IMG/VR virus record: IMGVR_UViG_3300021400_001148
Coordinates: 128,001-192,000 of that record
Length of the DNA stretch: 64,000 bases
Origin: a virus
Taxonomy: Duplodnaviria; Caudoviricetes
Strand: one strand, 5' to 3'
A model generated the notes under the pieces. It ran no database searches. It was given only the letters and a program-made list of their open reading frames with translations, and was not told where the DNA came from. Within the stretch, counting starts at the first letter, position 1; each line of letters starts with the position of its first letter. The translations under genes were made by a program, and so were the position numbers. Of the stretch, positions 2,289 to 21,570 are shown in pieces.

Positions 2289-2487
2289 ATTCTTGTTCTC
2301 TTTTGTTACAATACAAAGATAGCAACATAAAATCGTACTCATCCGAGTACGGCGCAATGCGGGCTGCCAATCTTGCGCCTAAAAGAAAAAATGCCGGGAA
2401 AGGCCATTTTTAGGCGATTTCCGGCACTTTAAGAAAAAAGATGATGTGGAACACCACTTTAACCTTGCGGGGTTAATATAGGGGGTT

Positions 2488-2691
2488 TTATTCGTCTTTC
2501 CAGCCAGTCCACTCATTGGTCATGTCCTCATAGGTATCCGCGTCCTCTATGGATACCATTTCCACGAAGTCGAAACCAATGTCTTCGGTATCATCGGGAA
2601 CAGGCATCTGTTTGTGCCATTTGTTCTTGATGTCAGTCATGTCGTCACCCTCTATAAAGGCTTCAACGCGATATGTAAGTCTGATTTTCAT
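2488..2691 (-). CDS. hypothetical protein
   Basis: Third gene of a tightly packed unit. Confidence 0.7.
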   Translation of the reverse strand: MKIRLTYRVEAFIEGDDMTDIKNKWHKQMPVPDDTEDIGFDFVEMVSIEDADTYEDMTNEWTGWKDE

Positions 2692-2694
2692 AAT

Positions 2695-2853
2695 TTAGTC
2701 CTCCTCCGGCCATTCAATTTCAGCCATTCCTCTATATGTTTCGTATTCGGTGAGTTTACCCCCGTCTTCAATTGCTGTGGCAAGTTCACGAAGAAACTCC
2801 GCAGTATAATAGAGGTCGGTAGTGATTTTGAGTGTTACTTGTTTCTCTTCCAT
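2695..2853 (-). CDS. small hypothetical protein, 52 aa (not in ORF track)
   Basis: MEEKQVTLKITTDLYYTAEFLRELATAIEDGG...EED; fills the gap between neighbours. Confidence 0.7.
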   Translation of the reverse strand: MEEKQVTLKITTDLYYTAEFLRELATAIEDGGKLTEYETYRGMAEIEWPEED

Positions 2854-2860
2854 ATCTTTA

Positions 2861-3154
2861 TTATTTGAGATTGGAGATATAGTGCTCCTCTATCCAATTG
2901 GCAAGAGCCTTTTTGTTCTGAGTGTCGAGGTCGCACCAAAAATGTGCGATGCTGGCTGCTGAATCATCATAGGCGTTGGCAAATAGTTTCCACTTGCTCA
3001 CCATGTGGTCAAAGTTGGTTGTCCACTCGGTTTCAATAAGGAAAACCGGAAGCGCGTCCGTCCTTTCGTCACCGAACATAGTCTTCCAAGTATGCATACG
3101 CATCTTGTAGTTCATTGCGAAGTTCAACAGAATTACATCAATAATCTTTTTCAT
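2861..3154 (-). CDS. hypothetical protein
   Basis: Follows promoter 3179. Confidence 0.8.
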   Translation of the reverse strand: MKKIIDVILLNFAMNYKMRMHTWKTMFGDERTDALPVFLIETEWTTNFDHMVSKWKLFANAYDDSAASIAHFWCDLDTQNKKALANWIEEHYISNLK

Positions 3155-3276
3155 ATCTTTGTCTTTTTGTTTACATTACAAAGATAGCAAAAACTTGTAT
3201 GCACCCAGCAGGTTAGGCGCAGTCTCGGCAGCCCACTTTGCGCCTAAAAAATCACCGCAGTTTCCCGCGGTGGTTT

Positions 3277-3438
3277 CTAAATCATTTCAACCCTTGTCAC
3301 CAGGCCTTTCAGTGGATAGCAACCGATTCTTTTCATATCGGAGATGAAATTCTTTTGCCAATCTTCGGCCTTTTCCTTGCTGTCAAATTCGTAGCAGGTG
3401 TTCACCACTCCGTCCACTATAGTCTTGAATACCCACAT
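3277..3438 (-). CDS. small hypothetical protein
   Basis: Start corrected to MWVFKTIV, just after the stop of the upstream gene. Confidence 0.65.
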   Translation of the reverse strand: MWVFKTIVDGVVNTCYEFDSKEKAEDWQKNFISDMKRIGCYPLKGLVTRVEMI

Positions 3439-3442
3439 ATCC

Positions 3443-3844
3443 CTAAAATTTTTCAGAGAGTTCCTCGATTTCTGCCCAAGAAAAGAGTTCTTCCATTTTC
3501 CGCAGGCTGTTGTGGCAACCATTGAAGGCTCTCCGCGCGGTAGCCATTTCCTCGTCTCCGTAGCCAAACTCGTTGGCAAATTCCCAGAAAAGCGGATTGT
3601 TCTTCGCTGCATAGCAGTCACTGACGATACAACCTATAGCATCCTCAATCAGAGACGGGCTGACGCGTCCGAGGCGGTAGTTGTAAACTGAATCGTGGAA
3701 AGTGAACTTTCTTTCAACCCCGCGGATGTTGATGATAATATAATAAGACTGATGCCAATCGCCAAGCAGGTCTTTGGTCACTTTGTTTTTGCGTGTTGAG
3801 ACTTTGAAAATTGTTCCGTCCGCAAGTGTGTAGTTCTTTGTCAT
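3443..3844 (-). CDS. hypothetical protein
   Basis: Start corrected to MTKNYTL after promoter 3866. Confidence 0.8.
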   Translation of the reverse strand: MTKNYTLADGTIFKVSTRKNKVTKDLLGDWHQSYYIIINIRGVERKFTFHDSVYNYRLGRVSPSLIEDAIGCIVSDCYAAKNNPLFWEFANEFGYGDEEMATARRAFNGCHNSLRKMEELFSWAEIEELSEKF

Positions 3845-4030
3845 GTTCTTGTTCCTTTTGTATAACAAAGATAATAAAAAAAGACGAAAGGATGACGGGC
3901 AAGGCGCAACCGCGGCAGCCTGCCTTGCGCCCATAAAAAAACCACGGGGTCTATCGTTTCGGTGGGTCGAAAATACCGCCTCTTAAAACCTACTGTGCTC
4001 GCCCGTGGATTGCAACAAAGATATGAAAAC

Positions 4031-4222
4031 TTAGTCTTCTTCGTTTCTGAGTTTCTGTATGTAAATTGCCTTGAGTTTCTTCTCCCTCTTCACAACGGAA
4101 GGCTTCTTGAATTCCTGCCGTTCCCTCTGTTCCTTTATGAGTTTGGTGTTGTTACATTTCCTCTTGAAAATCTTGAGGTATTTCTCAATTTTATCCGATT
4201 CTTCTACTGGCACTCTTAGCAT
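4031..4222 (-). CDS. rpsU: ribosomal protein bS21 (phage-encoded)
   Basis: MLRVPVEESDKIEKYLKIFKRKCNNTKLIKEQRERQEFKKPSVVKR matches the bS21 signature (L++FKRK...+E.R.R..F.KPS..+R); 63 aa, basic. Confidence 0.92.
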   Translation of the reverse strand: MLRVPVEESDKIEKYLKIFKRKCNNTKLIKEQRERQEFKKPSVVKREKKLKAIYIQKLRNEED

Positions 4223-4528
4223 TTTCGTGTTGTTTTCTTTCTTATTTTTTTTAGCCACCCATCCCCGCACCGCCCGGGGAGTTCTCTCAGATAAGGAGAG
4301 CGGTCTCACTTTACCAGCCAACTATTTCAGACTGGCCTTTAATCCTAATGGGTAATAGCCGTCCGCTTTATTTATACTCGAGCAGACGGTCGAGTGGGGA
4401 GAAACCAAGGGCAGGGCACCGAGCACACCAACATAGTTTGTGGTTTACAGCCGTCTTTAAGCCAAGGCCCGTGGTTTCGTATCACAAATATACAAAAACT
4501 TTCGTAATTTATAAATAGTTCGGTGCAA

Positions 4529-4693
4529 TTATTCCTCGTACAACTCGTCATTGAAGAGGACATATCCGAGAGCCTGCAGGACAGTATCCGCCTCATCACT
4601 TTCAATGCCGTTGTCTATGAGAACTTTTTCAGCCTTTTCAATATCTTCGGGGTAAAGTGTTGCCCGAACCACTACTTTTTCTCTTGGTGTCAT
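4529..4693 (-). CDS. small hypothetical protein, 54 aa (not in ORF track)
   Basis: MTPREKVVVRATLYPEDIEKAEKVLIDNG...; follows promoter 4714. Confidence 0.7.
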   Translation of the reverse strand: MTPREKVVVRATLYPEDIEKAEKVLIDNGIESDEADTVLQALGYVLFNDELYEE

Positions 4694-4816
4694 ATCGTTT
4701 CCTTTTTGTATAACAAAGATAATAATTCTAGTTCCAAACTTTGTAGGTACGGCGCAAAGTCGGCAGCCACCCTTGCGCCTAAAAAGAAAATGGTACTCAG
4801 TTGAGTACCACCCTCT

Positions 4817-5602
4817 TTAGAAATTCTCTATGATAGAGACACTGCATCCACCATTTTTTCGAGTGTCGGGCGTTTTGTACATCTTGAGAACAACGCTTGT
4901 CTCATACCCAAGCAATGCCGTGCTCTTGAGAAAGTTCACCACATTCTTTTCATATTTGTTGAGAGCGTCTCTCTCCATAGTCACTTTGTCAGTGTCGGTA
5001 AACTTCACGACCTGATTTTTTCGGAAATCCTCCACCACCTCTTCCTTGCTCTTGAGGTAGTCGGCAACAAACTGCGAGATTTCGGAAAAGTAATAGGTAA
5101 TTGTTTCTTCCCCGTATTTCCAATACCCCGATGGAAGTGGATAGCATTCCCTTACAGTGAATGTGCATGGCTCATCGTAGTAGACCGAGAGTGATTCAAT
5201 GAAGACGAAAAACTTGTCAAGCTGCCCGTCAGTAAAACGATAACTTATCACAGAACTACCGAACCAACCAAGTCCAGGAGAAAGAACCACCTGCCCGAAG
5301 ATTTCCTTGATAGGCTGCTGAAAATAGTATGCAATATTTACCTGCCCATCGCCGGTCGCAAGGCATTCGGGGGTTACAAAAAGATAGGGTATTGAGTATG
5401 TGTCACTCCATAATGTTATTTGTCCAAGGCCAGCCACATTGGCCAGAACTTCTACCGAACCTATTTCCGGTCTTGTCTCCAGCTCGGGATGAAGAGTGAA
5501 CCCGAGAATCTTAGCTTCGCGGACTACATTATCAGTACCTCTGTAGTAGAAAATCTGCTTGTTCAGAATGTTGTTGAGTGCATCGTAGTTGATAGTGTCC
5601 AT
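4817..5602 (-). CDS. hypothetical protein
   Basis: 261 aa ORF following promoter 5627. Confidence 0.85.
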   Translation of the reverse strand: MDTINYDALNNILNKQIFYYRGTDNVVREAKILGFTLHPELETRPEIGSVEVLANVAGLGQITLWSDTYSIPYLFVTPECLATGDGQVNIAYYFQQPIKEIFGQVVLSPGLGWFGSSVISYRFTDGQLDKFFVFIESLSVYYDEPCTFTVRECYPLPSGYWKYGEETITYYFSEISQFVADYLKSKEEVVEDFRKNQVVKFTDTDKVTMERDALNKYEKNVVNFLKSTALLGYETSVVLKMYKTPDTRKNGGCSVSIIENF

Positions 5603-5719
5603 ATCTTTGTTCTTTTGTTTACATCACAAAAGTAGTGAATTTTTTTCAGAACTTCACTTGTTAGGCGCAGCGGGGGCAGCCTGCCTTGCGCCTAAAAGAA
5701 AAACCCGCAGGTGCGGGCT

Positions 5720-5968
5720 TTACTTTGCAAACCTCGGAACAAAGAAATCTTCCAATTTGTAAGTATTTCGGTTGAGGTGTCTGTTGATTCCCGTAACATC
5801 ATGCAGGAAATCAATCGTGTCAGCCTTGAGCAGTTCATCCCACTTCATTCCGTAACCGCTTTCAGCAAGGACAAGCAAGTCCATGAAAATTGTAGTCCTG
5901 TCCCAATCTGGGAGATACCCCATCGCCCTTTTGACGATTTCGTTGATGGTTTTAATAGTCTCTTTCAT
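5720..5968 (-). CDS. conserved small phage protein (DUF6874-like)
   Basis: Motif MDL...LL.AD..DF.HDV.GI.RHLNR.T..L...F.PRFA recognised from memory. Confidence 0.6.
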   Translation of the reverse strand: MKETIKTINEIVKRAMGYLPDWDRTTIFMDLLVLAESGYGMKWDELLKADTIDFLHDVTGINRHLNRNTYKLEDFFVPRFAK

Positions 5969-5974
5969 AATTTT

Positions 5975-6430
5975 TTAGATTACGCCCCCGGGGAAAGCCA
6001 TACGGTGATTGACTTCCCTACCGTTCTCCGGCCCGGTCTTGATGAGGTAGGCGTTGAAACAGCCGTCAAAATATTTGTGGCCGAACTTGATGCCGTTGAC
6101 CTCAAAGCCCCTGTCACTACCGAACTTCTCGTAGATTTCGTCTCTGGTCAACTCGGTATTGGCTCCAGACTGTCTCCACTTCTCGTACATTGCACCCTCG
6201 TACTGTTCAAGTTCCTTGGCGTTGCCCTTGGGGAAAGTGTACCTCCAATCCTCAACGCGGTAACCGTCTGATTCACGCACGCCGTAGATGCGGACACTCT
6301 CCAGATAACCCCACTTGGAGTAATCCCATATATAACCCAGACGCTTGAGGTAAGCGAGGCCCTTCTTGTTAATGACTTCTCCCACAGGGAGGCTCTCAAA
6401 ATACTTCTGAATCTGTGTCTTTGTTTTCAT
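5975..6430 (-). CDS. hypothetical protein
   Basis: Start corrected to MKTKTQIQ after promoter 6450. Confidence 0.8.
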   Translation of the reverse strand: MKTKTQIQKYFESLPVGEVINKKGLAYLKRLGYIWDYSKWGYLESVRIYGVRESDGYRVEDWRYTFPKGNAKELEQYEGAMYEKWRQSGANTELTRDEIYEKFGSDRGFEVNGIKFGHKYFDGCFNAYLIKTGPENGREVNHRMAFPGGVI

Positions 6431-6603
6431 ATCCGTTCCTTTTACATTACAAATATAGTTAATGTTTTTCATTGACTGTCCGTTTTGGCGCAACGGGGGC
6501 AGCCGGCTTTGCGCCAAAAAGAAAATAGGTAGCCCCACTCCCAAAGGATGTACAAACCCCGGGGGAATAGGACTATCCTGTTGTAGTCTTTTTTTTTCGA
6601 GAT

Positions 6604-6798
6604 TTACTTTTCTAATGATGGCAGTCCGACAACTTTCCTGATTCGGTTTGCTATACTAAAGCAATCCCTTGCCAAATCCTCACCGCACTCTTTCTCCCCG
6701 AACGGCGGTTCCCATAGATACTGTTCACCCCTCTCGCGGATATACACCTGCGCGTCTTCCAGTATTTGCTTATCTTTTTTTCCGATTACTATAATCAT
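6604..6798 (-). CDS. hypothetical protein
   Basis: Second gene in its unit. Confidence 0.65.
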   Translation of the reverse strand: MIIVIGKKDKQILEDAQVYIRERGEQYLWEPPFGEKECGEDLARDCFSIANRIRKVVGLPSLEK

Positions 6799-6822
6799 GG
6801 CTTTATTCGTTAATGGTTTTGT

Positions 6823-7065
6823 TTACCACTCCCTCAGTTCGTTTATGTTTTTATTTACCACCACCTCAAACAGTGCGTTGACTGCTTTTTTGATTGTCGG
6901 ATAGAATTTGCCCTTAAGGAAAACCCTTTCCCCGTTGGCATCGCGCACATAATCGCACCAAACCTTTCCATAGGCAAGCCCTCTGCCGATACGCAGGTAT
7001 GCCACCTTACCATCATCCGTGCTAATCATAGGTGCAAGGCTCATGAATGTTTCTTCTGTTTTCAT
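6823..7065 (-). CDS. hypothetical protein
   Basis: Follows promoter 7089. Confidence 0.75.
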   Translation of the reverse strand: MKTEETFMSLAPMISTDDGKVAYLRIGRGLAYGKVWCDYVRDANGERVFLKGKFYPTIKKAVNALFEVVVNKNINELREW

Positions 7066-7182
7066 ATCTCTTTTGCTTTTATCTACTGCAAATATAGGTA
7101 TTTTATTTCATTTCAGTGCAGGTACGGCGCAGCATCGGCAGCCACCCTTGCGCTTAAAAAGAAATGGGGCGAACCCCATTCT

Positions 7183-7446
7183 CTACCTTGTCACGAACTG
7201 CCGGATTTTTTCATAAACAAGTTCTCTTGCATTTTCGCGGTATTCATCGTACCACGCGGACTCGCCATCGTCTTCATATGGTTCACCGTTTGCATCAAGT
7301 ATCTGATACTCGTCTTCCGTCTTTTTAACGGCAGTATTCACAATATCATTCGCCAGAGTGTAAATTGCGTCCTCAATGCTGATGTCTTCAATGCACTCGT
7401 TGAGGACTTTTTCTGCGGTAAAAACTGAAATCGTTTCCTTTTTCAT
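7183..7446 (-). CDS. hypothetical protein
   Basis: Coupled to the upstream gene. Confidence 0.75.
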   Translation of the reverse strand: MKKETISVFTAEKVLNECIEDISIEDAIYTLANDIVNTAVKKTEDEYQILDANGEPYEDDGESAWYDEYRENARELVYEKIRQFVTR

Positions 7447-7447
7447 A

Positions 7448-7777
7448 CTAATTGTGGTCTATAATGTGAAGATAGATATGGGAAAGTTGCTCGTTGTCAA
7501 GGGCGTCAATCGGGGTACTCTCCTTGTAGCACATACCACCCTCGTCCATAAATTCATAGTCAACGGTTGTTTCGCTGGTGACAAGACGCTCCCTTTCGTT
7601 GATGATAGGGGTGATGTTTGTATAGTGATACTGACCACCTGTGAAATCGTCATTCTCCCGCCCGTTGAGTTCTCCGTTTTCAATGTGGTGGCAGATTGCT
7701 GTGATATAAACTTTGTGGAGGTCTTCCTTCAGTTGGGTGATTCGCTCTTTGTAATAATCTGAAATTGTCTTTACCAT
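7448..7777 (-). CDS. hypothetical protein
   Basis: Start corrected to MVKTISD after promoter 7797. Confidence 0.75.
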   Translation of the reverse strand: MVKTISDYYKERITQLKEDLHKVYITAICHHIENGELNGRENDDFTGGQYHYTNITPIINERERLVTSETTVDYEFMDEGGMCYKESTPIDALDNEQLSHIYLHIIDHN

Positions 7778-7897
7778 TTTGTTTCCTTTTGTATAACAAA
7801 GATAGTAAAATATCCTCACCACTTGTCGGGTAAGGCGCAACATCGGCTGCCAGTCCTGCGCTTAAAAGAAAATGGTACTCAGTTGAGTACCACTCTC

Positions 7898-8074
7898 TTA
7901 TAAATCGTGCTCATTCATCCAATCCACATCCACGAAGTATGCGGAACTTCCGAAGTCATCCATACCCTTGTCATTATTGATAAGGTAAGCGTTGTCATCA
8001 AATCCCTCGACCATCATAAGGTCCTGGATTTCGGGCCAACCAACAGCCACATAGTTTCCTGTCCTGTTTGTCAT
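7898..8074 (-). CDS. small acidic protein, 58 aa (YxxVxWP..Q.LM family; not in ORF track)
   Basis: MTNRTGNYVAVGWPEIQDLMMVEGFDDNAYLINDDKGMDDFGSSAYFVD... Confidence 0.75.
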   Translation of the reverse strand: MTNRTGNYVAVGWPEIQDLMMVEGFDDNAYLINNDKGMDDFGSSAYFVDVDWMNEHDL

Positions 8075-8077
8075 ATC

Positions 8078-8617
8078 TTAGCCAAAAACGAGTTCACCAA
8101 AAATTGCACACTGAAGGATTGCGTCATATCCCCAAAGGTCGATGTTCTCTTCAACGAGGTCTACCCAAAAGCGAGGGTATTTCTGCTGGACAATCTGAAG
8201 GCCCTTTTCGATGTCAGCGAGAGAAATCTCATGATTCCATTCTGCATCGGGGGCGTCTTCGTCCGGATTATATTCATCGGTTTCGTAGATGGTGATTTTG
8301 CCACCTTTGAGGAGAATGTCAGCGAGTTTGTCCTCAAAACAATCATCGGGGTTGGTGAGGGGTTTGTCTTCATCGCGGTAGTCCGCACCGAACCACGGGC
8401 TACCATAGAGAGCTCCCGAAAGGATATAACTCAGTTGCTCCTTGTCAGTGGTGTAAAACTTGATGTCGGTCGGCTCGTAGGTTTTCTTCCCATCCGTCTC
8501 CTCGGCAAATGTGAGGTCGAGGAAATGTTCCGCAATCGCAGACGGAATCATGTTTTCCGCAGGATTTGCCTTAACAAAACTGATGAGTTCCTGCTCGATA
8601 AATTCTTTTTTTGTCAT
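8078..8617 (-). CDS. hypothetical protein
   Basis: Follows promoter 8642; C-terminal D..LQ.A+FGE+V+G motif seen in other phage proteins. Confidence 0.8.
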   Translation of the reverse strand: MTKKEFIEQELISFVKANPAENMIPSAIAEHFLDLTFAEETDGKKTYEPTDIKFYTTDKEQLSYILSGALYGSPWFGADYRDEDKPLTNPDDCFEDKLADILLKGGKITIYETDEYNPDEDAPDAEWNHEISLADIEKGLQIVQQKYPRFWVDLVEENIDLWGYDAILQCAIFGELVFG

Positions 8618-8741
8618 ACCTTTGTTCTTTTGTTTGCATTACAAATATAGTAAAAGTTTCCCTTATTTCTTGGATGTGGGCGCAACCGCGGCAGCCTGCC
8701 TTGCGCCCAAAAAGAAATCCGCCAAACGGGGCGGACTTCTG

Positions 8742-9308
8742 TCAATAAGGAAAATCGGTTATTTTTTCAAACCACCTGCAGTCATAGACATTTTTCGCAG
8801 GGTCGAAATCGTATTTCATTTTTTCAATACGGTCTTCAAGGTCTTCAATGTTTGCATCAGCCTTGACCATATATGCCCTGAAAGTGTTCGTGCCATCGTG
8901 ATGGGAAGACTCAAGGTAGAAGCAATCCATGTCGTAGGTGACTTTCAACCTATCTTCTGCAACCCTTTCAATGACCGAATCGAAGTCATCGAAAATTTCC
9001 GGCATAATTGTGGGGTTTCCCCACCAAAGTCCAAGCTGGCCAACTACCACAAACTTTGAGTTTGCGAGCACGCTGGAGTACTTGATATTGTTTCGGTCGC
9101 ACTCATAGCTATCCTGTCTCTCTTCCTCAAGCCAATCCCAATACCTTTGGCTGTCTTCGGGTGCGGGAGTGAGGTCGTTATCCTCACAAAATTGAACATA
9201 ATCAGCATACTCAAATTCGCTGTGACTGTCAAGTATGCAGGGAAGTTCATCCTTATGTTTTTCAGTGTATTTTTTGAACCAATTGATAAATCCTTTGTTT
9301 CTTTTCAT
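8742..9308 (-). CDS. hypothetical protein
   Basis: Start corrected to MKRNKGF; contains G.LGLW.G and HHDGTN motifs. Confidence 0.8.
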   Translation of the reverse strand: MKRNKGFINWFKKYTEKHKDELPCILDSHSEFEYADYVQFCEDNDLTPAPEDSQRYWDWLEEERQDSYECDRNNIKYSSVLANSKFVVVGQLGLWWGNPTIMPEIFDDFDSVIERVAEDRLKVTYDMDCFYLESSHHDGTNTFRAYMVKADANIEDLEDRIEKMKYDFDPAKNVYDCRWFEKITDFPY

Positions 9309-9412
9309 GATGTTTTTCCTTTTGACAATACAAATATAGTGTGTTTCCGTCAGATTTCGGCTTGCACGGCGCAGCATCGGCAGCCGACCTTGCGCCTAAA
9401 AAAAAAGAGGCA

Positions 9413-9865
9413 CTAAATGTACCTCACAAAATGGGTTGTCGGATACGGGGCATAGTTTCCGTCCTCAGAAATTTCGGCCGCGAGTTCCTCTGCGGTCAGC
9501 GACCAGCCGTTGGCCTCGGCAAGCTGTTTGAACTCTTCATCGGACAGGTCGTTGTTGGTCTTGTCCTCGGGGATGAAGTCCGCATCCAGAACATAGAACC
9601 GCTTTTCGGGTTTTTCGGGGGTGGAGTCTTTACCCAGATTCATGTAAACATTTGTATCATAGACATCGCAAGCGAGACCGAAGGCGGGACAAGAGGTGAA
9701 ATAAGAAGAACCCCCTTCGGCAAGGGCATAGGTGGCTCCGGGGTAGTTCGCCATAAACTTGTCCACCATTTTTATCTCGTCATCCTCGAGACCAGTGGTG
9801 TCTCCGTTCATCAGATAGCATAAAGCCCAAGCAGGGATTTTTTCTGTAGCAACTTTCTTCAGCAT
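9413..9865 (-). CDS. hypothetical protein
   Basis: Follows promoter 9888; IP.WAL.YL.NGD.TGL motif. Confidence 0.8.
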   Translation of the reverse strand: MLKKVATEKIPAWALCYLMNGDTTGLEDDEIKMVDKFMANYPGATYALAEGGSSYFTSCPAFGLACDVYDTNVYMNLGKDSTPEKPEKRFYVLDADFIPEDKTNNDLSDEEFKQLAEANGWSLTAEELAAEISEDGNYAPYPTTHFVRYI

Positions 9866-10115
9866 AGTCTTTATCTTTTTCTCAAAACAAATATAATGAA
9901 AAGATTTCTGCCTGTTGGTGATTAAGCGCAGTACCGGCAGCCACCCTTGCGCCTAAAAGAAAACCCCCGGGGCGGTCGCAACACTCGCTCCGAGGTACAT
10001 ACAACCTCCGCCGTTTTCGTGGTGGTTAGGGAACATTTTGCGAATTTCCTTAATCCAGCCCAGCATCTTAGATTGTTTTCGCGGACTTATGCAATCATCC
10101 GTTTTTATTTCTTCC

Positions 10116-10558: not shown

Positions 10559-10660
10559 GTCATTTCCTTTTGACATTACAAATATAGCGAAAAACTCTGA
10601 ATTTTCGGCTGGTCAGGCGCAAAACCGGCAGCCAGCCTTGCGCCAAAAAAAAAGAGGAGA

Positions 10661-11209: not shown

Positions 11210-11310
11210 ATTCGTTCCTTTTTCTATTACAAATATAGTGATAATTTTTGATAGTCTTGGGGTTTCGGCGCAAAGTCGGCAGCCACCCTTGCGCCCAAAA
11301 AAGAAAACCT

Positions 11311-12085: not shown

Positions 12086-12229
12086 CTTTTTCCCTTTCGT
12101 TACTACAAAGATAATAAAATAAAATCATATTCGTTTGGGTACAGCGCAATGCCGGCAGCCGCCTTCGCGCCAAAAGAAAAGGGGCGGCACCCCAGCGGCC
12201 ACCCCATTGAAACCGTACTCACTTGAGTA

Positions 12230-12942: not shown

Positions 12943-13034
12943 ATCTTTTCCTTTTGACATTACAAATATACCACAATTTTATTATAAATTTGTGGCATAG
13001 GCGCAACCACGGCAGCCTTCCTTGCGCCCAAAAG

Positions 13035-13401: not shown

Positions 13402-13710
13402 TTATACACTAATTTTAATCATGTCGGGAAGTCCGTTGGCAGAGTAGCCCCACCACTGCCTGCTGACCTTGAACCCCTCGGAGGTAAGGAATTTGATAAG
13501 GGCGGGGAACTTTTTGTTATCAAAAATTCCTACCTTGCAACCCTCGGCAGACGATGTACCACAAAGGGAATCAATGCAGACATATCCAATCCTCTTGATG
13601 CCTGCGGCTATCGTGGAAAGAATCTCATCTTTCCTCGGCATAATCTCGTTGTCAATAATCTGCTGGTCAGTGTTGGCCATTTCGGCTTTGAGTGTTTCTG
13701 CGTAGTTCAT
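13402..13710 (-). CDS. hypothetical protein
   Basis: Start corrected to MNYAETL. Confidence 0.8.
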   Translation of the reverse strand: MNYAETLKAEMANTDQQIIDNEIMPRKDEILSTIAAGIKRIGYVCIDSLCGTSSAEGCKVGIFDNKKFPALIKFLTSEGFKVSRQWWGYSANGLPDMIKISV

Positions 13711-13868
13711 ATCTTTGTCCTTTTGTTTACATAACAAAGATAGTGAAATTATTTGAAAACATACCAACCAAGGCGCAACCGCGGCAGCCGCTTTTGCGCC
13801 AAAAAGAAAAGGGGGCACCGGTCACACCAACATAGTTGGGTTTACAGCCGAATTTAAGCCCCTTGTTT

Positions 13869-14105
13869 CTATATGTCGCAGAACCTGTTTACAAGCCTTA
13901 TACTGCCGTTTGCAAGTTTCTCATTGAAAAACCTTTCGGACATACTCCAAAAATCGGAAATGCTCAGTTCCTCTGGGTTTTTGACCTTGCAGAAAGTGTA
14001 ATATGTCGCACCATATATCTGCCTCGTTTCCTTTGTGCGGAAGTAAAGTTCTTCTTTACCCGAATAAGGAAATTTGTAAGCGATTATCTGACCAATTTCT
14101 ACCAT
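13869..14105 (-). CDS. hypothetical protein
   Basis: Follows promoter 14129. Confidence 0.75.
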   Translation of the reverse strand: MVEIGQIIAYKFPYSGKEELYFRTKETRQIYGATYYTFCKVKNPEELSISDFWSMSERFFNEKLANGSIRLVNRFCDI

Positions 14106-14178
14106 AGTTGTTCTCGTTTGTTTCTATACAAATGTAACGAAAACATTTGAAAGCCTTTCAGCTTCGGCGCAGCAGAGG

Positions 14179-14415: not shown

Positions 14416-14421
14416 ATCCGT

Positions 14422-14655: not shown

Positions 14656-14838
14656 AACCTTTTCTTTTTGTATTACAAATGTAATGATTTAGAATGTAAA
14701 TCTCGGGAGTGAGGCGCAAAGGCGGCTGCCAGCCTTGCGCTTAAAGGAAAACCCCGGGGTTGCTCATGTCCCGGGGATTGTTAGAGGATTTGCTGAAGAT
14801 AACCCCACTCTTGGGAACCTTGTCGGTTTATTCAAATC

Positions 14839-15120
14839 CTACCAAATTGTCAGGAATGCGTAATCGTTGTCCTTGTCAGCCTCTTCGAGAATAAGGCTGG
14901 CGGTTGTACCCCAAACCTCGTCTTTTTCCATTTTTCTTAATGTGGAGAAAGGAATTTCAACCTCGGTTTCTTCTTCATTGATAAAGATACCGTCATCTAT
15001 TTCAGTGCCCATTTTTGAACGGAGGAACTGAAGGAATTTCTCTACCTCGTCCCAGCCATTGATGGCGTTTCGGCCGTATTCTACTTTGTAGATTTTTGCT
15101 GTGTGTAATGATAATGCCAT
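14839..15120 (-). CDS. hypothetical protein
   Basis: Follows promoter 15144. Confidence 0.75.
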   Translation of the reverse strand: MALSLHTAKIYKVEYGRNAINGWDEVEKFLQFLRSKMGTEIDDGIFINEEETEVEIPFSTLRKMEKDEVWGTTASLILEEADKDNDYAFLTIW

Positions 15121-15254
15121 AGTGTTGTGTTTTTCTTACAGTACAAAGATAGTAAGATAAAGTCGTACTCATCCGAGTACGGCGCAGTGCCGGCAGCCGC
15201 CTTTGCGCTTAAAAAGAAAAGGGGATTTCTCCCCTCTCTCAAATCTCTCAAAAG

Positions 15255-15416
15255 TTATTCCCCAATGTAGACAACACTTGCACCGAGTGTCGGCATATTA
15301 CTGTTGAGGTATTTTTGTGCTTCTTCTGGTGTCTTGAACCGCACAGGCTTATGAAATCCGTTAAGTGTTCCAAACGTCGGGCCCCAACCGCCCTCGACGA
15401 GCACCAAGCCGTCCAT
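15255..15416 (-). CDS. small hypothetical protein (not in ORF track)
   Basis: MDGLVLVEGGWGPTFGTLNGFHKPVRFKTPEEAQKYL...; start could be 15431. Confidence 0.55.
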   Translation of the reverse strand: MDGLVLVEGGWGPTFGTLNGFHKPVRFKTPEEAQKYLNSNMPTLGASVVYIGE

Positions 15417-15418
15417 TC

Positions 15419-15796
15419 CTATTCCGTACATACGCGTTTCGTCATTTGTTGTACTCTGAGCAAATTTGATTTGCGTGTTCCGTTCATATATTCCAAGAGA
15501 GTGGCAAGGTCTTCAGTCTCAAAGAAATGCTCTGAAGCAAGGACAGTCTGCTCATCACCATACGCGGACTTTACCGTTATTTTGAGAAAACCAAGGTTGT
15601 CTTGAAACACCTCAAAAACATCGGGATAAGCCCCAGTTTCATCGGGGTATGATACAGCCACATCACAGTAGACTTTCTCTTCCTCCTCCACTTCATCCCA
15701 TCTGCGGAAAATAAATTTGGTTCTATTTTCAGTGAGGGCAATCATTTCAGCAAGTATGCCTTTGCGAATTTCTTTGAGAACAGTTGTGTAATTCAT
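15419..15796 (-). CDS. hypothetical protein
   Basis: Start corrected to MNYTTVL. Confidence 0.75.
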   Translation of the reverse strand: MNYTTVLKEIRKGILAEMIALTENRTKFIFRRWDEVEEEEKVYCDVAVSYPDETGAYPDVFEVFQDNLGFLKITVKSAYGDEQTVLASEHFFETEDLATLLEYMNGTRKSNLLRVQQMTKRVCTE

Positions 15797-15914
15797 ATTC
15801 GTTTCCTTTTTACAATACAAATATAATGAAAAACTTTCCGTTGCTGGTGAATTTGGCGCAAAGCCGGCAGCCAGCCTTGCGCCTAAAAAGAAAAGGGGAT
15901 TTCTCCCCCTTTCG

Positions 15915-16223
15915 TTAGTCGATGTAGCCGAATGTGCCGTCCGCAAGGCCTTTCCTGCGTTCCTTTGCGTTGTAACCGCACCACCGCCCGACATGGCCCG
16001 AAGTGGTGTGGGAGCAGTCATGCTCACAGCCGAAATAGTAGCGACCTTCGCTCCTGATATACACACCCACGATGGTTTCGTAGGACTGAAAAACCTCTCC
16101 GTTTTCATAGTAGATTATGAACTGATTGGGGGCTTTGCCATAGCCGTTTCTGGAGGGGCCGTTGGTTATCTTCCTGAGGGTGCCGAGTTTGGCAGAGAGC
16201 TGGGACATTGTCATTTTTTCCAT
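15915..16223 (-). CDS. hypothetical phage protein
   Basis: Start corrected to MEKMTMS; NQF....FQSY.T.V..S.TT..H motif. Confidence 0.8.
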   Translation of the reverse strand: MEKMTMSQLSAKLGTLRKITNGPSRNGYGKAPNQFIIYYENGEVFQSYETIVGVYIRSEGRYYFGCEHDCSHTTSGHVGRWCGYNAKERRKGLADGTFGYID

Positions 16224-16526
16224 ATCTTCTTGTTTTCTGATTACATTACAAAGATACAACATTTTCTTTAGTGTGCTGTAGGTTGGGCGCAACGGGGGCA
16301 GCCGCCTTTGCGCCTAAAAAGAAACGGAATGGTGTCCCACTCCGTTTCCACATATAGCCGTCTTCGAGCGGTTTTACCTCTACCTCATTACCCCAAAAGG
16401 TAAGCCCGGTGTTAGATTCGGCATTTATGTTTGCAACGAATTGCCCTCGTTGCCAGAGCCCAACCTCGTTTCCCTCCCTCGGTCGGCATTGGGCGCGGTC
16501 AGCTACTCCGCCTTCAGTTCTCTTTT

Positions 16527-16688
16527 TTACAAATGTGGCAAAATCTTTTCATCAAAGATAAGGCAGTTGAATACCCCGATGATTGAGAGGATAAGGTATC
16601 CCATATCACTTCGCCATTTCAGTGCTACGAATACAATCGGCAGGATTATCACCGCATACCCCAATATTCTTTTTGCTTTTGTGCTCAT
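16527..16688 (-). CDS. small two-helix membrane protein, 53 aa (not in ORF track)
   Basis: MSTKAKRILGYAVIILPIVFVALKWRSDMGYLILSIIGVFNCLIF...; follows promoter 16709. Confidence 0.65.
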   Translation of the reverse strand: MSTKAKRILGYAVIILPIVFVALKWRSDMGYLILSIIGVFNCLIFDEKILPHL

Positions 16689-16807
16689 ATCATTTCCTTT
16701 TGACATTACAAATATAATACAATTATCGCAAATGCTGTCAGTTTCGGCGCAGCATCGGCAGCCGCCTTAGCGCCCAAAGGAAAACCCTCGCTCGGAGGGT
16801 TGCCCAA

Positions 16808-17605
16808 TCAGTAGATTTTTTCCTGATACTTCACTCGCCCCGTAGGGGTTTTGATAGTGATTTCTATGTACTTCCGCTTTTCGCCCTCGCACTCCACTTC
16901 GTAGTATTCGGAGTGTTTGCGTTCAAAGTCATCTATGTAGTTCTCCTCGCCCCTCTTGACTGAGATAGTGTCCTTGCTACCCCTTGCCTTGCGGAGTTCT
17001 TCAAGTATCCTTGCACACTTGTTCGGCTTGTTGTCAAGGAAACACCTCTCGCCATACTCGTCCCAAAGCCTTCCCCTCTTGCCACCCATAGCCGCGGAGA
17101 AGAGTTCATAGTTTCCGAGCGGCTTGTTGTACCCACCGAAGTTGGGGCCAGCCAGCGCGTACTTGTTGAGGTAGTTCTGCAAGGCCTTGTACTCCTTGCA
17201 AGGGGCATCTGCAAGGCAGACCTTTGCGATGTACTTCAACTTGTAGGTACACCAATAGGAAACCCCATTGTTGTACTCTATGGTATCTTCGACCACAGAC
17301 AGACCGCTCCACCCCTTTGTTTTCTTCAGCTGGTCAAACATCTTGCCGAGTTCGCAGAACACTTCGGAAATATCGGTGCGAGTTTTTACACTGCCCATTT
17401 CCTTGTTGTTCATCTTGATGGTGTAGGAATCGGTGTACCTCTTCCCATCTTTGTCCCACTTATCATTATCCCACACTGCGAAGTCCACCATTTGGCTCTT
17501 CCTGCTCCAAGAACCGAGAGGGAGACCTTTGTTAGACTTGCGTGTGCTTGCAAGGGCGGTCTTTGCCGCCTTGAAAATCTTTTCTGCCAATGTCTTGTTG
17601 TCCAT
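16808..17605 (-). CDS. basic hypothetical protein
   Basis: 265 aa, follows promoter 17630. Confidence 0.85.
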   Translation of the reverse strand: MDNKTLAEKIFKAAKTALASTRKSNKGLPLGSWSRKSQMVDFAVWDNDKWDKDGKRYTDSYTIKMNNKEMGSVKTRTDISEVFCELGKMFDQLKKTKGWSGLSVVEDTIEYNNGVSYWCTYKLKYIAKVCLADAPCKEYKALQNYLNKYALAGPNFGGYNKPLGNYELFSAAMGGKRGRLWDEYGERCFLDNKPNKCARILEELRKARGSKDTISVKRGEENYIDDFERKHSEYYEVECEGEKRKYIEITIKTPTGRVKYQEKIY

Positions 17606-17727
17606 ACCTTTGTGCTTTTGTTTACATTACAAAGATACACATTTCTCCGCAAGGCCGGTGTCCGGTGGCGCGGACGGGGCAGCCATCATCGCGCCGAGAA
17701 GAAAACCCTCACTTGGAGGGTTCGCTT

Positions 17728-18165
17728 TTACTGCTCAGCCTGAGCCTTTTCGTACTCCTTTGCAAGGTCAAGGAGGAAACTGAACACATCAGCCGCGTTC
17801 TCCCAACCTCCGTCAAGGACATCACACCACGCGCCATCACAAAGCCACTTCGGAGATTTTTTGTCTTCGGGGTCATAGTTCGGATTCTTGTAATAAACAA
17901 AACTCTCGAACCAATTGTTATTGTCCACATACACGCGTTCATCGTTCCATGCCTTTCCATTGTGGAAAAGTTCCACAAGTTCTTCGGGAAACTGTGAGGA
18001 CGCTCTATAGGATTCGTCATTGAAAACCACACGGACATCTCCTGCAACCCTGATAGAAACATAAAGACCGTCAGTTTCAAGGCTGGCAACTTCCTGACCG
18101 CTGTCGAGTTCCATTGAATCGTTTACACCGAGAAGAAAATCGGCTACTGAAAAATCGTATTTCAT
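17728..18165 (-). CDS. hypothetical protein
   Basis: Start corrected to MKYDFSV. Confidence 0.8.
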   Translation of the reverse strand: MKYDFSVADFLLGVNDSMELDSGQEVASLETDGLYVSIRVAGDVRVVFNDESYRASSQFPEELVELFHNGKAWNDERVYVDNNNWFESFVYYKNPNYDPEDKKSPKWLCDGAWCDVLDGGWENAADVFSFLLDLAKEYEKAQAEQ

Positions 18166-18359
18166 ATCTTTGTTTCTTGGTTTATACAAATATAGTAATA
18201 AAATCCCAGACCTACTCCACCAAGGCGCAGCATCGGCAGCCGACCTTGCGCCAAAAAAGAAACGGAATGGCGTCCCACTCCGTTTCAGAAAAAGTCGGCT
18301 TCGAGCGGTTTTATCTCTACCTCATTACCCCAAAGGGCAAGCCCGGTGTCAAGCTTCGA

Positions 18360-18680
18360 CTATATTTCAAACATATCCCTGACCATACTCTCAAGGTCTT
18401 TCGCTGTTTTAACACCCCTCCGCCTGAACTCCTCATTCAACTGCCTTGTGGTTACATACTTTGAGCAAGCGTAATATTCAGACGGATAGGATACTTCAAT
18501 CACCCTGAAAGTGCCTGTCTTCCAATCGTAGTCACATTCCCCCTCCCATGTGGCGTCTCCCGTACAGAAAGGATATGCACTGGAGCGTAAAGCAACTACC
18601 TCTGCGTGTGCTTTGAAACCCAATTTCTTTGCAGTATCGTTGATGAACTTTGCGAAAACTTTGCTAACTTGTACTTTCAT
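18360..18680 (-). CDS. hypothetical protein
   Basis: Start corrected to MKVQVSK. Confidence 0.8.
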   Translation of the reverse strand: MKVQVSKVFAKFINDTAKKLGFKAHAEVVALRSSAYPFCTGDATWEGECDYDWKTGTFRVIEVSYPSEYYACSKYVTTRQLNEEFRRRGVKTAKDLESMVRDMFEI

Positions 18681-18817
18681 AGTGTGTTCCCTTGTTTGCA
18701 TTACAAATATAGCCAATTTCTTTGAAAGGGCGGTCTTGTCTGGCGCAGCGGGGGCAGCCTGCCTTGCGCCTGAAAGAAAACCCCGAGAGCAATGCCCCCG
18801 GGGGAAACCAAAAAACA

Positions 18818-19114
18818 TCAGTCGATATACCCGAGAAATCTCGTTTCATACACTCCCCAGCCATCGGCTATATACCAATCATGGGCTTTCTGCTCAGCCT
18901 CTTCCTCCGAGGAGGCCACGATGATTTCTTTTCTCGTTCTGCTTTCGTGATAGGGAAGCCCGAGGACAAAAAGTGTCGCTTCGTACTTTCCCGCCTTTGT
19001 CTCTGGCTCATAGGTAAGGCCGAGAAAATGCTTTGCAATTTCAAAGGTGTCTGCGTAGGGGTTTTCCTCAATGAATTTCCCCAGTTCTTTTTCAATAAAT
19101 CCGTCTCTTGACAT
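18818..19114 (-). CDS. hypothetical protein
   Basis: N-terminus resembles that of 8078..8617 (FIE.EL..F+..NP....IA.HFL.LT). Confidence 0.75.
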   Translation of the reverse strand: MSRDGFIEKELGKFIEENPYADTFEIAKHFLGLTYEPETKAGKYEATLFVLGLPYHESRTRKEIIVASSEEEAEQKAHDWYIADGWGVYETRFLGYID

Positions 19115-19138
19115 AGTGTATTGTGTTTTGGTGTTTGC

Positions 19139-19381
19139 CTATTTGAAAATCGCCCAAAAATCAAGTTTGCAGACCAGCTCATCAACCTTGTTGCCCACCC
19201 TTTGGGCGAGTTCCCAAGCACCCTCATCAACCACTCCGTTTTCATCCTCGAAAACCTCTCCATCCGCACACCAATCAACGAACCTTTCAGTTCCCTGCTC
19301 CAACTCAATGTCATTGTAGAGCATATTGGTAATCTGATTTGCGACTTTCTTGATTTGTTCCTTTGTGTAATGCTTAACCAT
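19139..19381 (-). CDS. hypothetical protein
   Basis: Start corrected to MVKHYTK. Confidence 0.75.
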   Translation of the reverse strand: MVKHYTKEQIKKVANQITNMLYNDIELEQGTERFVDWCADGEVFEDENGVVDEGAWELAQRVGNKVDELVCKLDFWAIFK

Positions 19382-19534
19382 AGTGTTTGTTCTTTTACAT
19401 AACAAAGATAAGAAAAATCTCTTCCAGACCAGCGGACAAGGCGCAGCATCGGCAGCCGACCTTGCGCCACAAAAAAAAACGGAGGGTATCTCACGACAGC
19501 CCCCGTTACCCCTTATCTAACCCTATCTAAAATC

Positions 19535-19927
19535 TTATTCTTCTTCGTGTTCGTGCATACGGACTTCTTCCTTGCCGAAAAAAGCCTGCTCGAAAGTGGT
19601 TTTGAGGTTCCGCCTTTCCCACTTGTCCTTGATGTTGTAGGTGTGGATTACAAGCGGCTCGCCTTTGAGGATACAGACCATAAAGTCAATTCCGAGGGTT
19701 TTTCTACCATATTCAACGGATTCAGCCATACCACAGGGCTTTCCCTGCTCTGCAAGGCACTCCGTAAACCTTTCAAGGAGGTCGGCGCCAGTTTTTCTTA
19801 CAGTGAGGTAGACATTCTCCCCCTTTTCATACTTTTCGTATGCCTTCGGGAAGTCGATGAAGAGGTCGCCACTGCAAGAGTGGATATAATTCGCACAAAT
19901 GTGGAATATGTTGCAGATGTATTTCAT
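19535..19927 (-). CDS. hypothetical protein
   Basis: Start corrected to MKYICN. Confidence 0.75.
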   Translation of the reverse strand: MKYICNIFHICANYIHSCSGDLFIDFPKAYEKYEKGENVYLTVRKTGADLLERFTECLAEQGKPCGMAESVEYGRKTLGIDFMVCILKGEPLVIHTYNIKDKWERRNLKTTFEQAFFGKEEVRMHEHEEE

Positions 19928-20080
19928 ATACCTTTCTTTTACATTACAAATATAAACAAATTTCTTCGTTGTTTGCTGTCTTTGGCGCAGCGTGGGCAGC
20001 CACCATTGCGCCCACAAGTGTTTCCCACCCGCCATCTTCTCTGATTTACCCAATGATAGCAGGTGGGATTTTTTTTTATT

Positions 20081-20476
20081 CTATATCAAATTTTCAAGAT
20101 TTTCAAGATAGTACTTTATCGCTGCTTCGCAGGCTTCTTCATATTCCAAGGATTCACACTGATGGTAATCATCTTCGCAAGGTTTAGATGTCATTGGCTT
20201 AACATATGCATACCATAAGTGCTCCCATTCTGTATCAATGGCAATGTTATGCACTTCCCTCAACCACTTCATTGCCATTTGAAGAGTAGGTGCAGTACAT
20301 TCAAAATAGTTTTTTGTTATATCATTGTAATTAGAATTACGAATACTATCATATCTATTTAACTTACACAAGTCACCATAAGGCATATAAACCATTGATG
20401 TGCTCCAATCAAACCCCTTTTCCTTCAGGAGTTTTGCCGTTTCAAAACTAATATAGTCTTCATTATTAAGCACCAT
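20081..20476 (-). CDS. conserved Bacteroidales-phage hypothetical protein
   Basis: EDYISFETAKLLKEKGF...APTLQMAMKWLRE...YEEA.EAAI motif; lower GC than neighbours. Confidence 0.8.
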   Translation of the reverse strand: MVLNNEDYISFETAKLLKEKGFDWSTSMVYMPYGDLCKLNRYDSIRNSNYNDITKNYFECTAPTLQMAMKWLREVHNIAIDTEWEHLWYAYVKPMTSKPCEDDYHQCESLEYEEACEAAIKYYLENLENLI

Positions 20477-20478
20477 AT

Positions 20479-20916
20479 TTATTCCTCCTTTTTTCTATTA
20501 AAATGAGTTGCTCCCCATTCAGCGAAGTAACGGGCGATATACGCATAGTCTTCGGGCTCTATATTGGTAGTATCAGCCACACTCGCATCGTGATATGTTT
20601 GCTCTATGATTTTCTCCAACTCCGCCCTTGCCGCCTCCGCCTCCAGCTGGCTTCCGTAAAGAAATTCTTGAACAGTAGGCCCTATATTACCCCAAGGCTC
20701 TAATTCTTTCCATTCCTTTTCAAGTTGCTCTTTCGGTGTTGTAGCAAGGTGGTGTTTAAGTTCTGCAACCAAATCCACCTCCGGCTGCTCCTGTTGGAGA
20801 GAGGTAGCAAATAAAAGAAGTTCATTAAGCCTTTTGTTAGCAACTCGGCTCTCTTTTAAGTCGATAAGCCTTTTTATCTCGGCTATCAGTTTTTCCGCGT
20901 CAATGTATTTAATCAT
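20479..20916 (-). CDS. hypothetical protein
   Basis: Start corrected to MIKYIDAEKL. Confidence 0.75.
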   Translation of the reverse strand: MIKYIDAEKLIAEIKRLIDLKESRVANKRLNELLLFATSLQQEQPEVDLVAELKHHLATTPKEQLEKEWKELEPWGNIGPTVQEFLYGSQLEAEAARAELEKIIEQTYHDASVADTTNIEPEDYAYIARYFAEWGATHFNRKKEE

Positions 20917-21079
20917 GACTATAATTTTTAATGTTGCACTACAAATATAAGAAAACAATCTCAAACCCTGTCAGCCAAGGCGCAACCGCGGCAGCCGCTT
21001 TTGCGCCAAAAAGAAAAGGGGGCACCGGTCACACCAACATAGTTGGGTTTACAGCCGAATTTAAGCCCCTTGTTATTTG

Positions 21080-21421
21080 TCAGATTTTACCGAACACCGC
21101 ACCCTTGACGAAGTTATAAACCTCTCTGATGGTTTTCTTGCTGAGGTTTTCCCAAGGCAGGAGCACAATGTTGTCGCTCTCGCCATCGTTGTCATCGATG
21201 ATGATGCCACCAGGGCAGACTTCGGCCATAAACGCACTTCCAATCATAACGGGGTGCGTTTCCATAAAGTCGTAGTCGAGTTTGGGCATATGGAGCATCT
21301 CTACCCTGCGGGCGGCCCTAAGCATAGCCTCAAAGAACCAATCGTTCTGGTCGGTCTTGAACGAATCGTTGTACTTTTCTACTACCGCAGCAATCTTGCG
21401 AATCATTTTCTTTGTTCTCAT
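21080..21421 (-). CDS. hypothetical protein
   Basis: Start corrected to MRTKKMI. Confidence 0.75.
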   Translation of the reverse strand: MRTKKMIRKIAAVVEKYNDSFKTDQNDWFFEAMLRAARRVEMLHMPKLDYDFMETHPVMIGSAFMAEVCPGGIIIDDNDGESDNIVLLPWENLSKKTIREVYNFVKGAVFGKI

Positions 21422-21570
21422 GTCTTGTTCTCGTTTGGTATTACAAAGATAAACAATTTTATTTCCACCCTGCGGGTTTCGGCGCAACGGGGGCAGCCGA
21501 CTTTGCGCCTACAACGAACCCCCGAGGACCGCTCCCCGGGGGACAACAACCAAAACACAAACTATGAGAG

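Follow-up and report, generated by a model that had tools for sequence, protein, structure and literature searches.

Repeated regulatory junctions as likely sites of short-homology recombination in a cassette array of a rumen jumbo phage

Layout of the array and its junctions

The stretch of DNA analyzed here (the window) is 64,000 nucleotides long and comprises bases 128,001-192,000 of the 354,809-bp virus record IMGVR_UViG_3300021400_001148, in which direct terminal repeats are present. It contains 31 of the 36 units of an array of small gene cassettes, each headed by a palindrome with the core GGCWGCC. This core occurs 32 times in the window, compared to 4.5 times expected from shuffled sequences, and 31 of the 32 copies lie at 804-22,022. 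When the arms are included (GCGC-N6-GGCWGCC-N6-GCGC), the palindrome is found 36 times in the entire 354,809-bp genome, always between genome positions 123,878 and 150,032. This 26-kb block corresponds to window coordinates -4122 to 22,032, so the array continues approximately 4 kb upstream of the window start.

1-22035, minus strand: cassette array, window portion (31 of 36 units), each unit with a palindrome, a predicted promoter and small minus-strand genes

After the ATG that closes each junction, a unit contains one to four small genes on the minus strand. The average GC content of the array is 45%. Eight of its ten largest genes have no Pfam or PHROG match, and an Rfam search of window positions 1-23,000 returned no family. 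Comparing the array with itself reveals a single repeat, the junction of approximately 100 bp (70-80% identity), while the genes are unrelated to one another at the DNA level. Judged from its sequence, this part of a rumen Bacteroidales jumbo phage is hyperplastic and made up of 36 self-contained transcription units.

Read along the minus strand, a junction consists of a hairpin and T-run (TTTTCTTTTTA), a 29-bp palindrome, a spacer, the motif TAnnTTTG and, about 20 nt further on, the ATG. The full palindrome, GGCGCAA-N4-GGCWGCC-N4-TTGCGCC, directly abuts the T-run. The terminator hairpin is G+C-rich and its sequence varies between units. The spacer is likewise variable in sequence; the distance from palindrome to TAnnTTTG is 30 nt in 33 of the 36 units and 31 nt in the remaining three. 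TAnnTTTG corresponds to the consensus of the -7 element of Bacteroidota housekeeping-sigma promoters. With the slightly relaxed pattern TAnnTT[T/A]G, this -7 box follows all 36 palindromes, although the match at the last of them (window -4122) may be no real promoter. The junction of unit 14, its elements read from the sequence, is representative:

13700-13870, minus strand: junction of unit 14
13800-13867, minus strand: 3' untranslated region and hairpin/T-run terminator
13772-13801, minus strand: palindrome
13743-13772, minus strand: 30-nt spacer
13735-13742, minus strand: -7 box, TATCTTTG
13710, minus strand: ATG

The three conserved blocks of the palindrome are spaced about 11.5 bp apart, centre to centre, or about one helical turn. 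Because the spacing to the promoter is rigid, the role of the palindrome is probably in the first place transcriptional, and it most likely binds a symmetric regulator of promoters of this class. The flanking elements would supply promoter and terminator activity to each unit. The complementarity of the two spacers inside the palindrome is 2.61, compared to 2.64 when spacers are re-paired (p=0.64), and they do not covary. The absence of complementarity beyond re-pairing indicates that the interior is not a selected stem, and selection for a hairpin or cruciform in the interior was ruled out on these grounds. As single strands, four of five tested copies form a hairpin (-9.8 to -13 kcal/mol, z about -2.6); the fifth folds no better than its shuffles.

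The palindrome is also found outside the array. On a short metagenome contig (L034:625-727), a single copy has TAnnTTTG 30 nt away on both sides, which suggests that one palindrome may be able to serve divergent promoters symmetrically. The strict pattern GGCGCAA-N4-GGCWGCC-N4-TTGCGCC also has one exact match in each of seven Pseudomonas genomes (L046-L048, L051, L052, L056 and L059); these matches are probably unrelated to the array.

Unit gain, unit loss and conversion between strains

All of our comparison sequences are metagenomic contigs. A palindrome scan of a genome collection led to the contig L057 in RUG734, and looking up the extra gene of that contig led to a close strain with 96-99% identity, hereafter the variant strain. 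It is represented by two 20,381-bp loci, L069 and L070, whose sequences match completely and whose samples and assemblers differ. The variant arrangement is also seen in L057/L071 and L072, and it recurs in four further contigs from other runs. The arrangement of the phage described here recurs in L022-L026, and L022 is the same phage, with 100% identity over the array.

This phage and the variant strain share collinear blocks, 95-98.5% identical, that are interrupted by six cassette-scale events in approximately 14 kb. In four of them the variant strain has an extra unit flanked by junction copies; the other two are segments that this phage has and the variant strain lacks. In all six, an exchange edge falls in the palindrome, at its edge or in the conserved blocks of the junction. 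The events (A-F) and the conversion tracts described below are located as follows (window coordinates):

794-820: palindrome, unit 31
1504-1530: palindrome, unit 30
2352-2378: palindrome, unit 29; its promoter spacer has a GTACTC..GAGTAC word at 2333
3217-3243: palindrome, unit 28
3904-3930: palindrome, unit 27
4752-4778: palindrome, unit 26; shared terminator word at 4783
5665-5691: palindrome, unit 25
6488-6514: palindrome, unit 24
7127-7153: palindrome, unit 23
7835-7861: palindrome, unit 22; shared terminator word at 7865
8680-8706: palindrome, unit 21
9339-9395: conversion tract, palindrome of unit 20 (9369-9395) and its 30-nt spacer
9926-9952: palindrome, unit 19
10617-10643: palindrome, unit 18; site of event F
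11268-11294: palindrome, unit 17
12144-12170: palindrome, unit 16; site of event E
13001-13027: palindrome, unit 15
13768-13867: donor copy of the 100-bp block (3' untranslated region, terminator and palindrome of unit 14), identical in both strains
14714-14740: palindrome, unit 13
15182-15208: palindrome, unit 12; matches the unit 11 palindrome of the variant strain
15856-15882: palindrome, unit 11; probable conversion tract
16287-16313: palindrome, unit 10
16747-16773: palindrome, unit 9 (core 16757-16763); edge of event D
16791-17727, minus strand: event D segment, including the unit 8 palindrome (17668-17694)
18225-18251: palindrome, unit 7
18743-18769: palindrome, unit 6; site of event C
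19441-19467: palindrome, unit 5
19985-20011: palindrome, unit 4; replaced in the variant strain (event B)
20018-20478, minus strand: event B segment, a 131-aa gene (20081-20476) and terminator
20975-21074: recipient copy of the 100-bp block, including the unit 3 palindrome (20980-21006)
21482-21508: palindrome, unit 2
22006-22032: palindrome, unit 1, the first of the array; site of event A

The four extra units of the variant strain sit at palindromes 22006, 18743, 12144 and 10617. At the first of these (event A, 428 bp), the switch point is within the palindrome, in the interval that separates the core from the terminator-side arm. The 527-bp unit of event C carries a 126-aa gene with 28% GC, and the two junction copies that flank it have 32 nt in common, from T-run to core. 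In event E, which adds a 107-aa unit, the crossover is confined to 18 nt that run from the GCGC arm on the terminator side to the core; in event F, which adds a 112-aa unit, the duplicated segment is approximately 50 nt and runs from the core to the -7 box. None of the four genes found only in the variant strain has a homologue anywhere in this genome, and the events are therefore gains or losses and not relocations. Other related phages have homologues of three of these genes. The unit of event C (L070:10001-10381, equal to L057:1486-1866 on the minus strand) is found with its lysine-rich gene on 11 contigs, and the gene looks like a recently acquired foreign one.

The two segments specific to this phage have comparable edges. 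In event B, a 131-aa gene and its terminator (20018-20478) are present only here, the whole palindrome at 19985 is replaced in the variant strain, and identity restarts at the end of the promoter-side arm. The segment of event D (16791-17727) contains the unit 7 terminator, the palindrome at 17668-17694 and, in unit 8, a 265-aa gene (16808-17605). Its edge is at palindrome 16747, where identity between the strains begins at the core and extends towards the promoter; the terminator-side half and the terminator are unrelated.

Three junctions differ between the strains in a way that leaves gene content unaltered. At palindrome 20980 (unit 3), the variant strain is identical from the core onwards, with a diverged terminator and terminator-side half. 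In this phage the same junction holds one copy of a 100-bp block (20975-21074) that an earlier note on this DNA had described as identical to 13768-13867; the copies indeed agree at 100 of 100 positions and end abruptly on both sides. Since the duplicate is absent from the variant strain, it is a recent copy of the unit 14 junction over that of unit 3 in this lineage only, which points to ectopic conversion. At palindrome 15856 (unit 11), both spacers differ between strains and the flanks have 0-1 mismatch. Here the palindrome of the variant strain equals the neighboring unit 12 palindrome (15182) exactly, over 28 nt, and the difference looks like a short conversion tract of approximately 45 nt. 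At palindrome 9369 (unit 20), the promoter-side half and spacer (9339-9378) differ at 12 positions, in a tract that ends at the core on one side and at the -7 box on the other.

Divergence between the strains is given below by zone; junctions compared to gene bodies give p=2e-20:

Terminator-side half: 11%
Promoter-side half: 7.4%
30-nt spacer: 7.4%
Terminator: 4.3%
-7 box and leader: 2.0%
Gene bodies: 1.6%
Core: 0.75%

In about half of the junctions, the strains differ at 0 or 1 position; others have clustered tracts of 3-12 changes. One replacement of another kind lies inside the first gene of unit 3, where 64 bp (20806-20869) are exchanged for 94 unrelated bases in the variant strain, not at a palindrome. 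The encoded proteins are 81% identical overall between the strains.

Distant relatives and the two halves of the junction

More distant relatives were found by means of the 265-aa cassette protein and contig look-ups. Other routes yielded little. Megablast of both window halves against INPHARED gave no match, a pattern scan of IMG/VR returned only the record of the phage itself, pattern scans of JGI metagenomes gave only short or chance matches, and a search for related loci with a 403-aa flank protein found nothing. A search with the CCA-adding enzyme led to a 363-kb genome (G001) that has scattered common genes only (25-70% amino-acid identity), with no synteny to this phage and no palindrome.

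The informative relative, REL, is a 31-kb sequence that we joined from L045, L028 and L044 by exact overlaps. It contains 38 palindromes with the same junction architecture and the same 30-nt spacing. REL and this phage share 39 reciprocal-best genes (25-86% identity) whose orientation is kept and whose order is strongly permuted. Counted in this phage, neighboring shared genes that no palindrome separates are still neighbors in seven cases and split in four; where a palindrome lies between them, three adjacencies are kept and 21 broken (Fisher p=0.004). Counted from the side of REL, the same test gives p=0.007. The earlier note had proposed that crossovers at or near the core insert, delete and reorder cassettes, and the permuted order in REL supports this together with the six events in the close strain. 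Both outcomes that would have spoken against the proposal were looked for and not found: gene order was not conserved in the relatives, and the breakpoints were not scattered independently of the palindrome.

The same note had described palindrome halves and flanks as mosaically shuffled. Because the genes are on the minus strand, its "left" spacers belong to the promoter-side half and its "right" spacers to the terminator-side half. Every left/right pairing that it listed can be read in the sequence, as can the words it reported as shared between units: TCGTACTCATCCGAGTAC at 2333 and 15163, a 29-nt terminator word at 4783 and 7865, and AAAAGAAAAGGGGATTTCTCCCC at 15212 and 15886. The spacer statistics agree with the mosaic description. 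Against a column-shuffle null, the 6-mers of the terminator-side spacer form 33 identical pairs (17.5 expected, p=0.004) and those of the promoter-side spacer form 28 (6.8 expected, p=0.0002). Seven pairs of units share both halves (1.4 expected, p=0.002) and about 47 share one half only, so most sharing involves a single half, and the halves are linked in part, not tightly.

Each half tends to stay with its own flank. In this phage and in the relative, the promoter-side half covaries with its 30-nt spacer, with r=0.18 (p=0.001) for one and 0.17 (p=0.005) for the other. The terminator-side half is correlated with its terminator in the relative (r=0.14, p=0.003); in this phage the correlation is not significant (r=0.07). 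Neither half covaries with the opposite flank in either genome.

An inverted repeat, GGTACTCA-NN-TGAGTACC, recurs in and beyond these arrays. It forms a terminator hairpin in this phage (window 4783-4811 and 7865-7893), in REL (9640-9660, 13470-13490 and 18000-18020) and in a phage that lacks the palindrome (L027 11830-11848). Its core, GTACTC..GAGTAC, occurs inside two promoter spacers of this phage (2333-2350 and 15163-15180). The repeat may be a mobile or protein-bound hairpin module.

Several related jumbo phages (L029, L031, L042 and L043 in whole, L027 in part) have homologues of array genes and no palindrome. In its place, TGGCACG-N4-TTGC lies upstream of their genes. This sequence is a perfect sigma-54-type -24/-12 motif, present at 21-34 copies per 20 kb and oriented with the genes. 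The genome studied here contains no copy of this motif and encodes no sigma-54 DNA-binding domain. It seems from this comparison that the whole junction type has been exchanged between phage lineages. The promoter-side half of the palindrome (for example 13773-13789, TGGCTGCC-N4-TTGC) resembles the motif of the relatives and is one base longer; the likeness of the two junction types could reflect chance or common descent. A reading of the palindrome half as a sigma-54 promoter was rejected, given that its spacing is one base too long and that the genome has no sigma-54 gene. With the GG-GC spacing fixed, TGGCAC-N5-TTGC has zero copies in this genome.

Proposed mechanism, alternatives and known systems

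We consider it likely that short-homology recombination between the repeated regulatory junctions reshuffles the units, in a manner analogous to the promoter-early stem-loops (PeSLs) of T4-type phages. No Phage_integrase or Resolvase domain, and thus no tyrosine or serine recombinase, was detected in the genome with searches whose controls matched (Phage_integrase search), while a RecA-family gene gave a match of 40.6 bits. When junctions are compared in pairs, the longest in-register run of identity is 10 nt at the median and 18 nt at the 90th percentile; 76% of pairs have it in the stretch from T-run to palindrome and 24% at the -7 box. The exchange edges that we observed broadly track this spread and are also found at the T-run and -7 box, so short-homology recombination is sufficient and a site-specific step is not required.

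We infer the following pathway. The T-run with the adjoining arm, the core, the second arm and the -7 box are the sole sequence common to otherwise unrelated units. Because these blocks are all that units share, and because a RecA-like gene is present, we propose that the homologous-recombination machinery of the phage exchanges strands there, at matches of about 7-30 nt. Such exchange could have three outcomes: whole units would be deleted or inserted between two junctions, units would be re-ordered without inversion, or short ectopic gene-conversion tracts would be left behind. Through the conversion tracts, the two halves would be re-assorted independently of each other, the terminator-side one along with its terminator and the promoter-side one along with its spacer.

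Several observations weigh against this model or limit its reach. In Bacteroidota promoters, a -33 element, TTTG, lies approximately 19-21 nt upstream of the -7 element; none is conserved in the spacer consensus of the 36 junctions, which is consistent with, though not proof of, dependence on an upstream activator site. Three or four of the breakpoints relative to REL fall inside units where there is no palindrome (units 16, 24 and 28). Together with the replacement inside the unit 3 gene of the variant strain, these breaks imply that other routes also act. The enrichment of breaks at junctions relative to REL could also partly reflect selection for intact transcription units. Lastly, orthologous junctions of this phage and REL have no detectable spacer similarity, and old exchanges are therefore untraceable; the sole signal in that comparison is the terminator travelling with its upstream gene.

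The palindrome might instead be a dedicated recombination site, comparable to an integron attC, that a recombinase or nuclease of the phage cuts or pairs, possibly as a folded single strand, in site-specific capture and excision. Several edges at the core or arms have only 7-13 nt in common, the tracts appear to begin at the core and extend one way, four of five tested single strands fold into a hairpin, and an HNH-domain protein is encoded approximately 4 kb from the array start. We nevertheless regard a dedicated site as unlikely. The genome has no tyrosine or serine recombinase and the four proteins adjoining the array start match no recombinase family. Moreover, the edges at the T-run and -7 box occur in about the proportion predicted by the longest shared runs, the palindrome spacers do not covary, one tested copy folds no better than shuffles, and the fixed 30-nt promoter distance points to a transcriptional role. 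A variant in which a dedicated phage protein targets the palindrome, regulating the promoters and also initiating strand exchange at the core, whether through a nick, a break or the recognition of a hairpin, strikes us as similarly doubtful. If it were true, jumbo phages would possess in this array an integron-like platform for cassette capture that works without an integrase, and the conversion tracts would originate at the core.

Quite improbable, in our view, is that breaks are illegitimate and occur anywhere, with selection retaining whole units, so that the palindrome would mark borders without joining in the exchange. Such selection would also produce the contrast between intra-unit and inter-unit adjacencies seen in REL and would accommodate the breaks inside units. 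However, four of the six events add a unit between direct junction copies with the switch point within 18-50 shared nt, and the conversion tracts at units 3, 11 and 20, which alter no gene content, are left unexplained by unit integrity. It is even harder to dispense with recombination altogether and let constrained short spacers drift among a few allowed words until combinations converge. Spacer composition is biased (the terminator side, for example, usually begins AAGG), and orthologous junctions have no spacer similarity, as such drift would predict. Yet the changes form clustered tracts of 3-12 between strains that are approximately 98-99% identical in genes, one tract matches a neighboring palindrome at every position and a second is a perfect 100-bp copy, and spacers recur above the column-shuffle null; we give convergence very little credence. 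It is just as improbable that the strain differences are chimeras of metagenome assembly, even though only metagenomic contigs were compared and assemblers can be misled by repeats. Over 20,381 bp, the variant arrangement does not differ between the assemblies of two separate samples; it recurs on four further contigs, and that of this phage recurs in L022-L026. In addition, the runs shared by junctions are mostly 10-30 nt, far below the k-mers given in the contig names (k87, k141), and the genes of the extra units are not present in this genome.

Short-homology recombination at junctions has a described parallel. PeSLs are regulatory cassettes of T4-type phages (Arbiol et al. 2010, PMC2839356; Comeau et al. 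2014, PMC4122927): motifs of approximately 100 bp with promoter and terminator, present in tens of copies in hyperplastic regions, before orphan genes. They flank insertions, deletions and replacements between near-identical phages, and in the absence of an integrase the recombination system of the phage itself was invoked; mini-circles have been demonstrated for them (PMC2839356; PMC4122927). The junctions described here are likewise terminator and promoter motifs of approximately 100 bp, as far as the letters alone reveal, in many copies. All 36 are in one 26-kb block before genes mostly without known homologues, and the six indels and replacements relative to the close strain are bounded by them. 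The excision and insertion between flanking motifs that the PeSL authors modeled fits events A, C, E and F. There are also differences. The junctions contain a Bacteroidota -7 box, in contrast to the E. coli sigma-70 -35/-10 elements of PeSLs, and have no homology to the PeSL consensus (sigma-70 -35/-10 and a GGGG..CCCC stem). In PeSLs the stem-loop itself is conserved and its position variable, whereas here the hairpin is variable and a separate 29-bp tripartite palindrome is conserved at a rigid distance from the promoter. Exchanges here also resolve to the palindrome, and its two halves assort independently. By this comparison of organization, the junction is a PeSL analogue, not a homologue or a member of that family.

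The array resembles an integron as well, being one-directional, with small, mostly orphan cassettes separated by imperfect palindromes and a content that varies among close strains. An integron reading was rejected: no IntI, tyrosine or serine recombinase is encoded in this genome, each unit has its own -7 box and terminator whereas integron cassettes are promoterless and rely on a common promoter, and the arms (GGCGCAA/TTGCGCC) are unlike the R''-L''/L'-R' boxes and bulged hairpin of attC. The hairpins here are only moderately stable, with an interior that does not covary, and exchange edges are spread across the conserved blocks of the junction. In the modular theory of Botstein (1980), as far as it is discussed in PMC2839356, linkers are short conserved boundary sequences where unrelated modules swap. 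The junctions are similar in that a short conserved sequence between functionally unrelated modules is the place of the swap. They differ in being a defined regulatory junction present in 36 copies in one genome, and in showing intragenomic conversion and unit gain and loss beyond exchange between phages.

Cassette shuffling at repeated regulatory motifs has been documented mainly in T4-type phages of Proteobacteria, and the same logic appears to operate in this 355-kb phage of rumen Bacteroidales, which is uncultured and unrelated to them. Here the exchange edges map within a few bases of a defined palindrome, and the halves of the junction have separate genealogies. Units with foreign-looking genes, one with 28% GC, come and go between strains otherwise approximately 98% identical, a case of how giant gut phages may turn over accessory (probably host-takeover) genes. 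The array also defines a promoter class with a candidate operator. That the junction type is apparently replaceable across a whole array, as the comparison with palindrome-free phages suggests, raises the question of regulator-promoter co-evolution in phages.

Some further features of this genome and its source deserve mention. The palindrome core includes GCWGC, and the phage also encodes a C-5 cytosine methyltransferase (window 28464-29531). Two genes for sigma-70-family sigma factors score above the Pfam cut-off (window 41686-42705 and genome 337,220-337,966), and a third match is weak; with its own sigma factors, the phage probably redirects transcription for other gene classes. RUG734, a metagenome-assembled genome of an uncultured rumen Bacteroidales, holds fragments of the phage (L049, L057 and L058) that are 97-98% identical to it. 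Their binning in RUG734 is a hint to the host, and the case illustrates that bins of metagenome-assembled genomes can include phage DNA.

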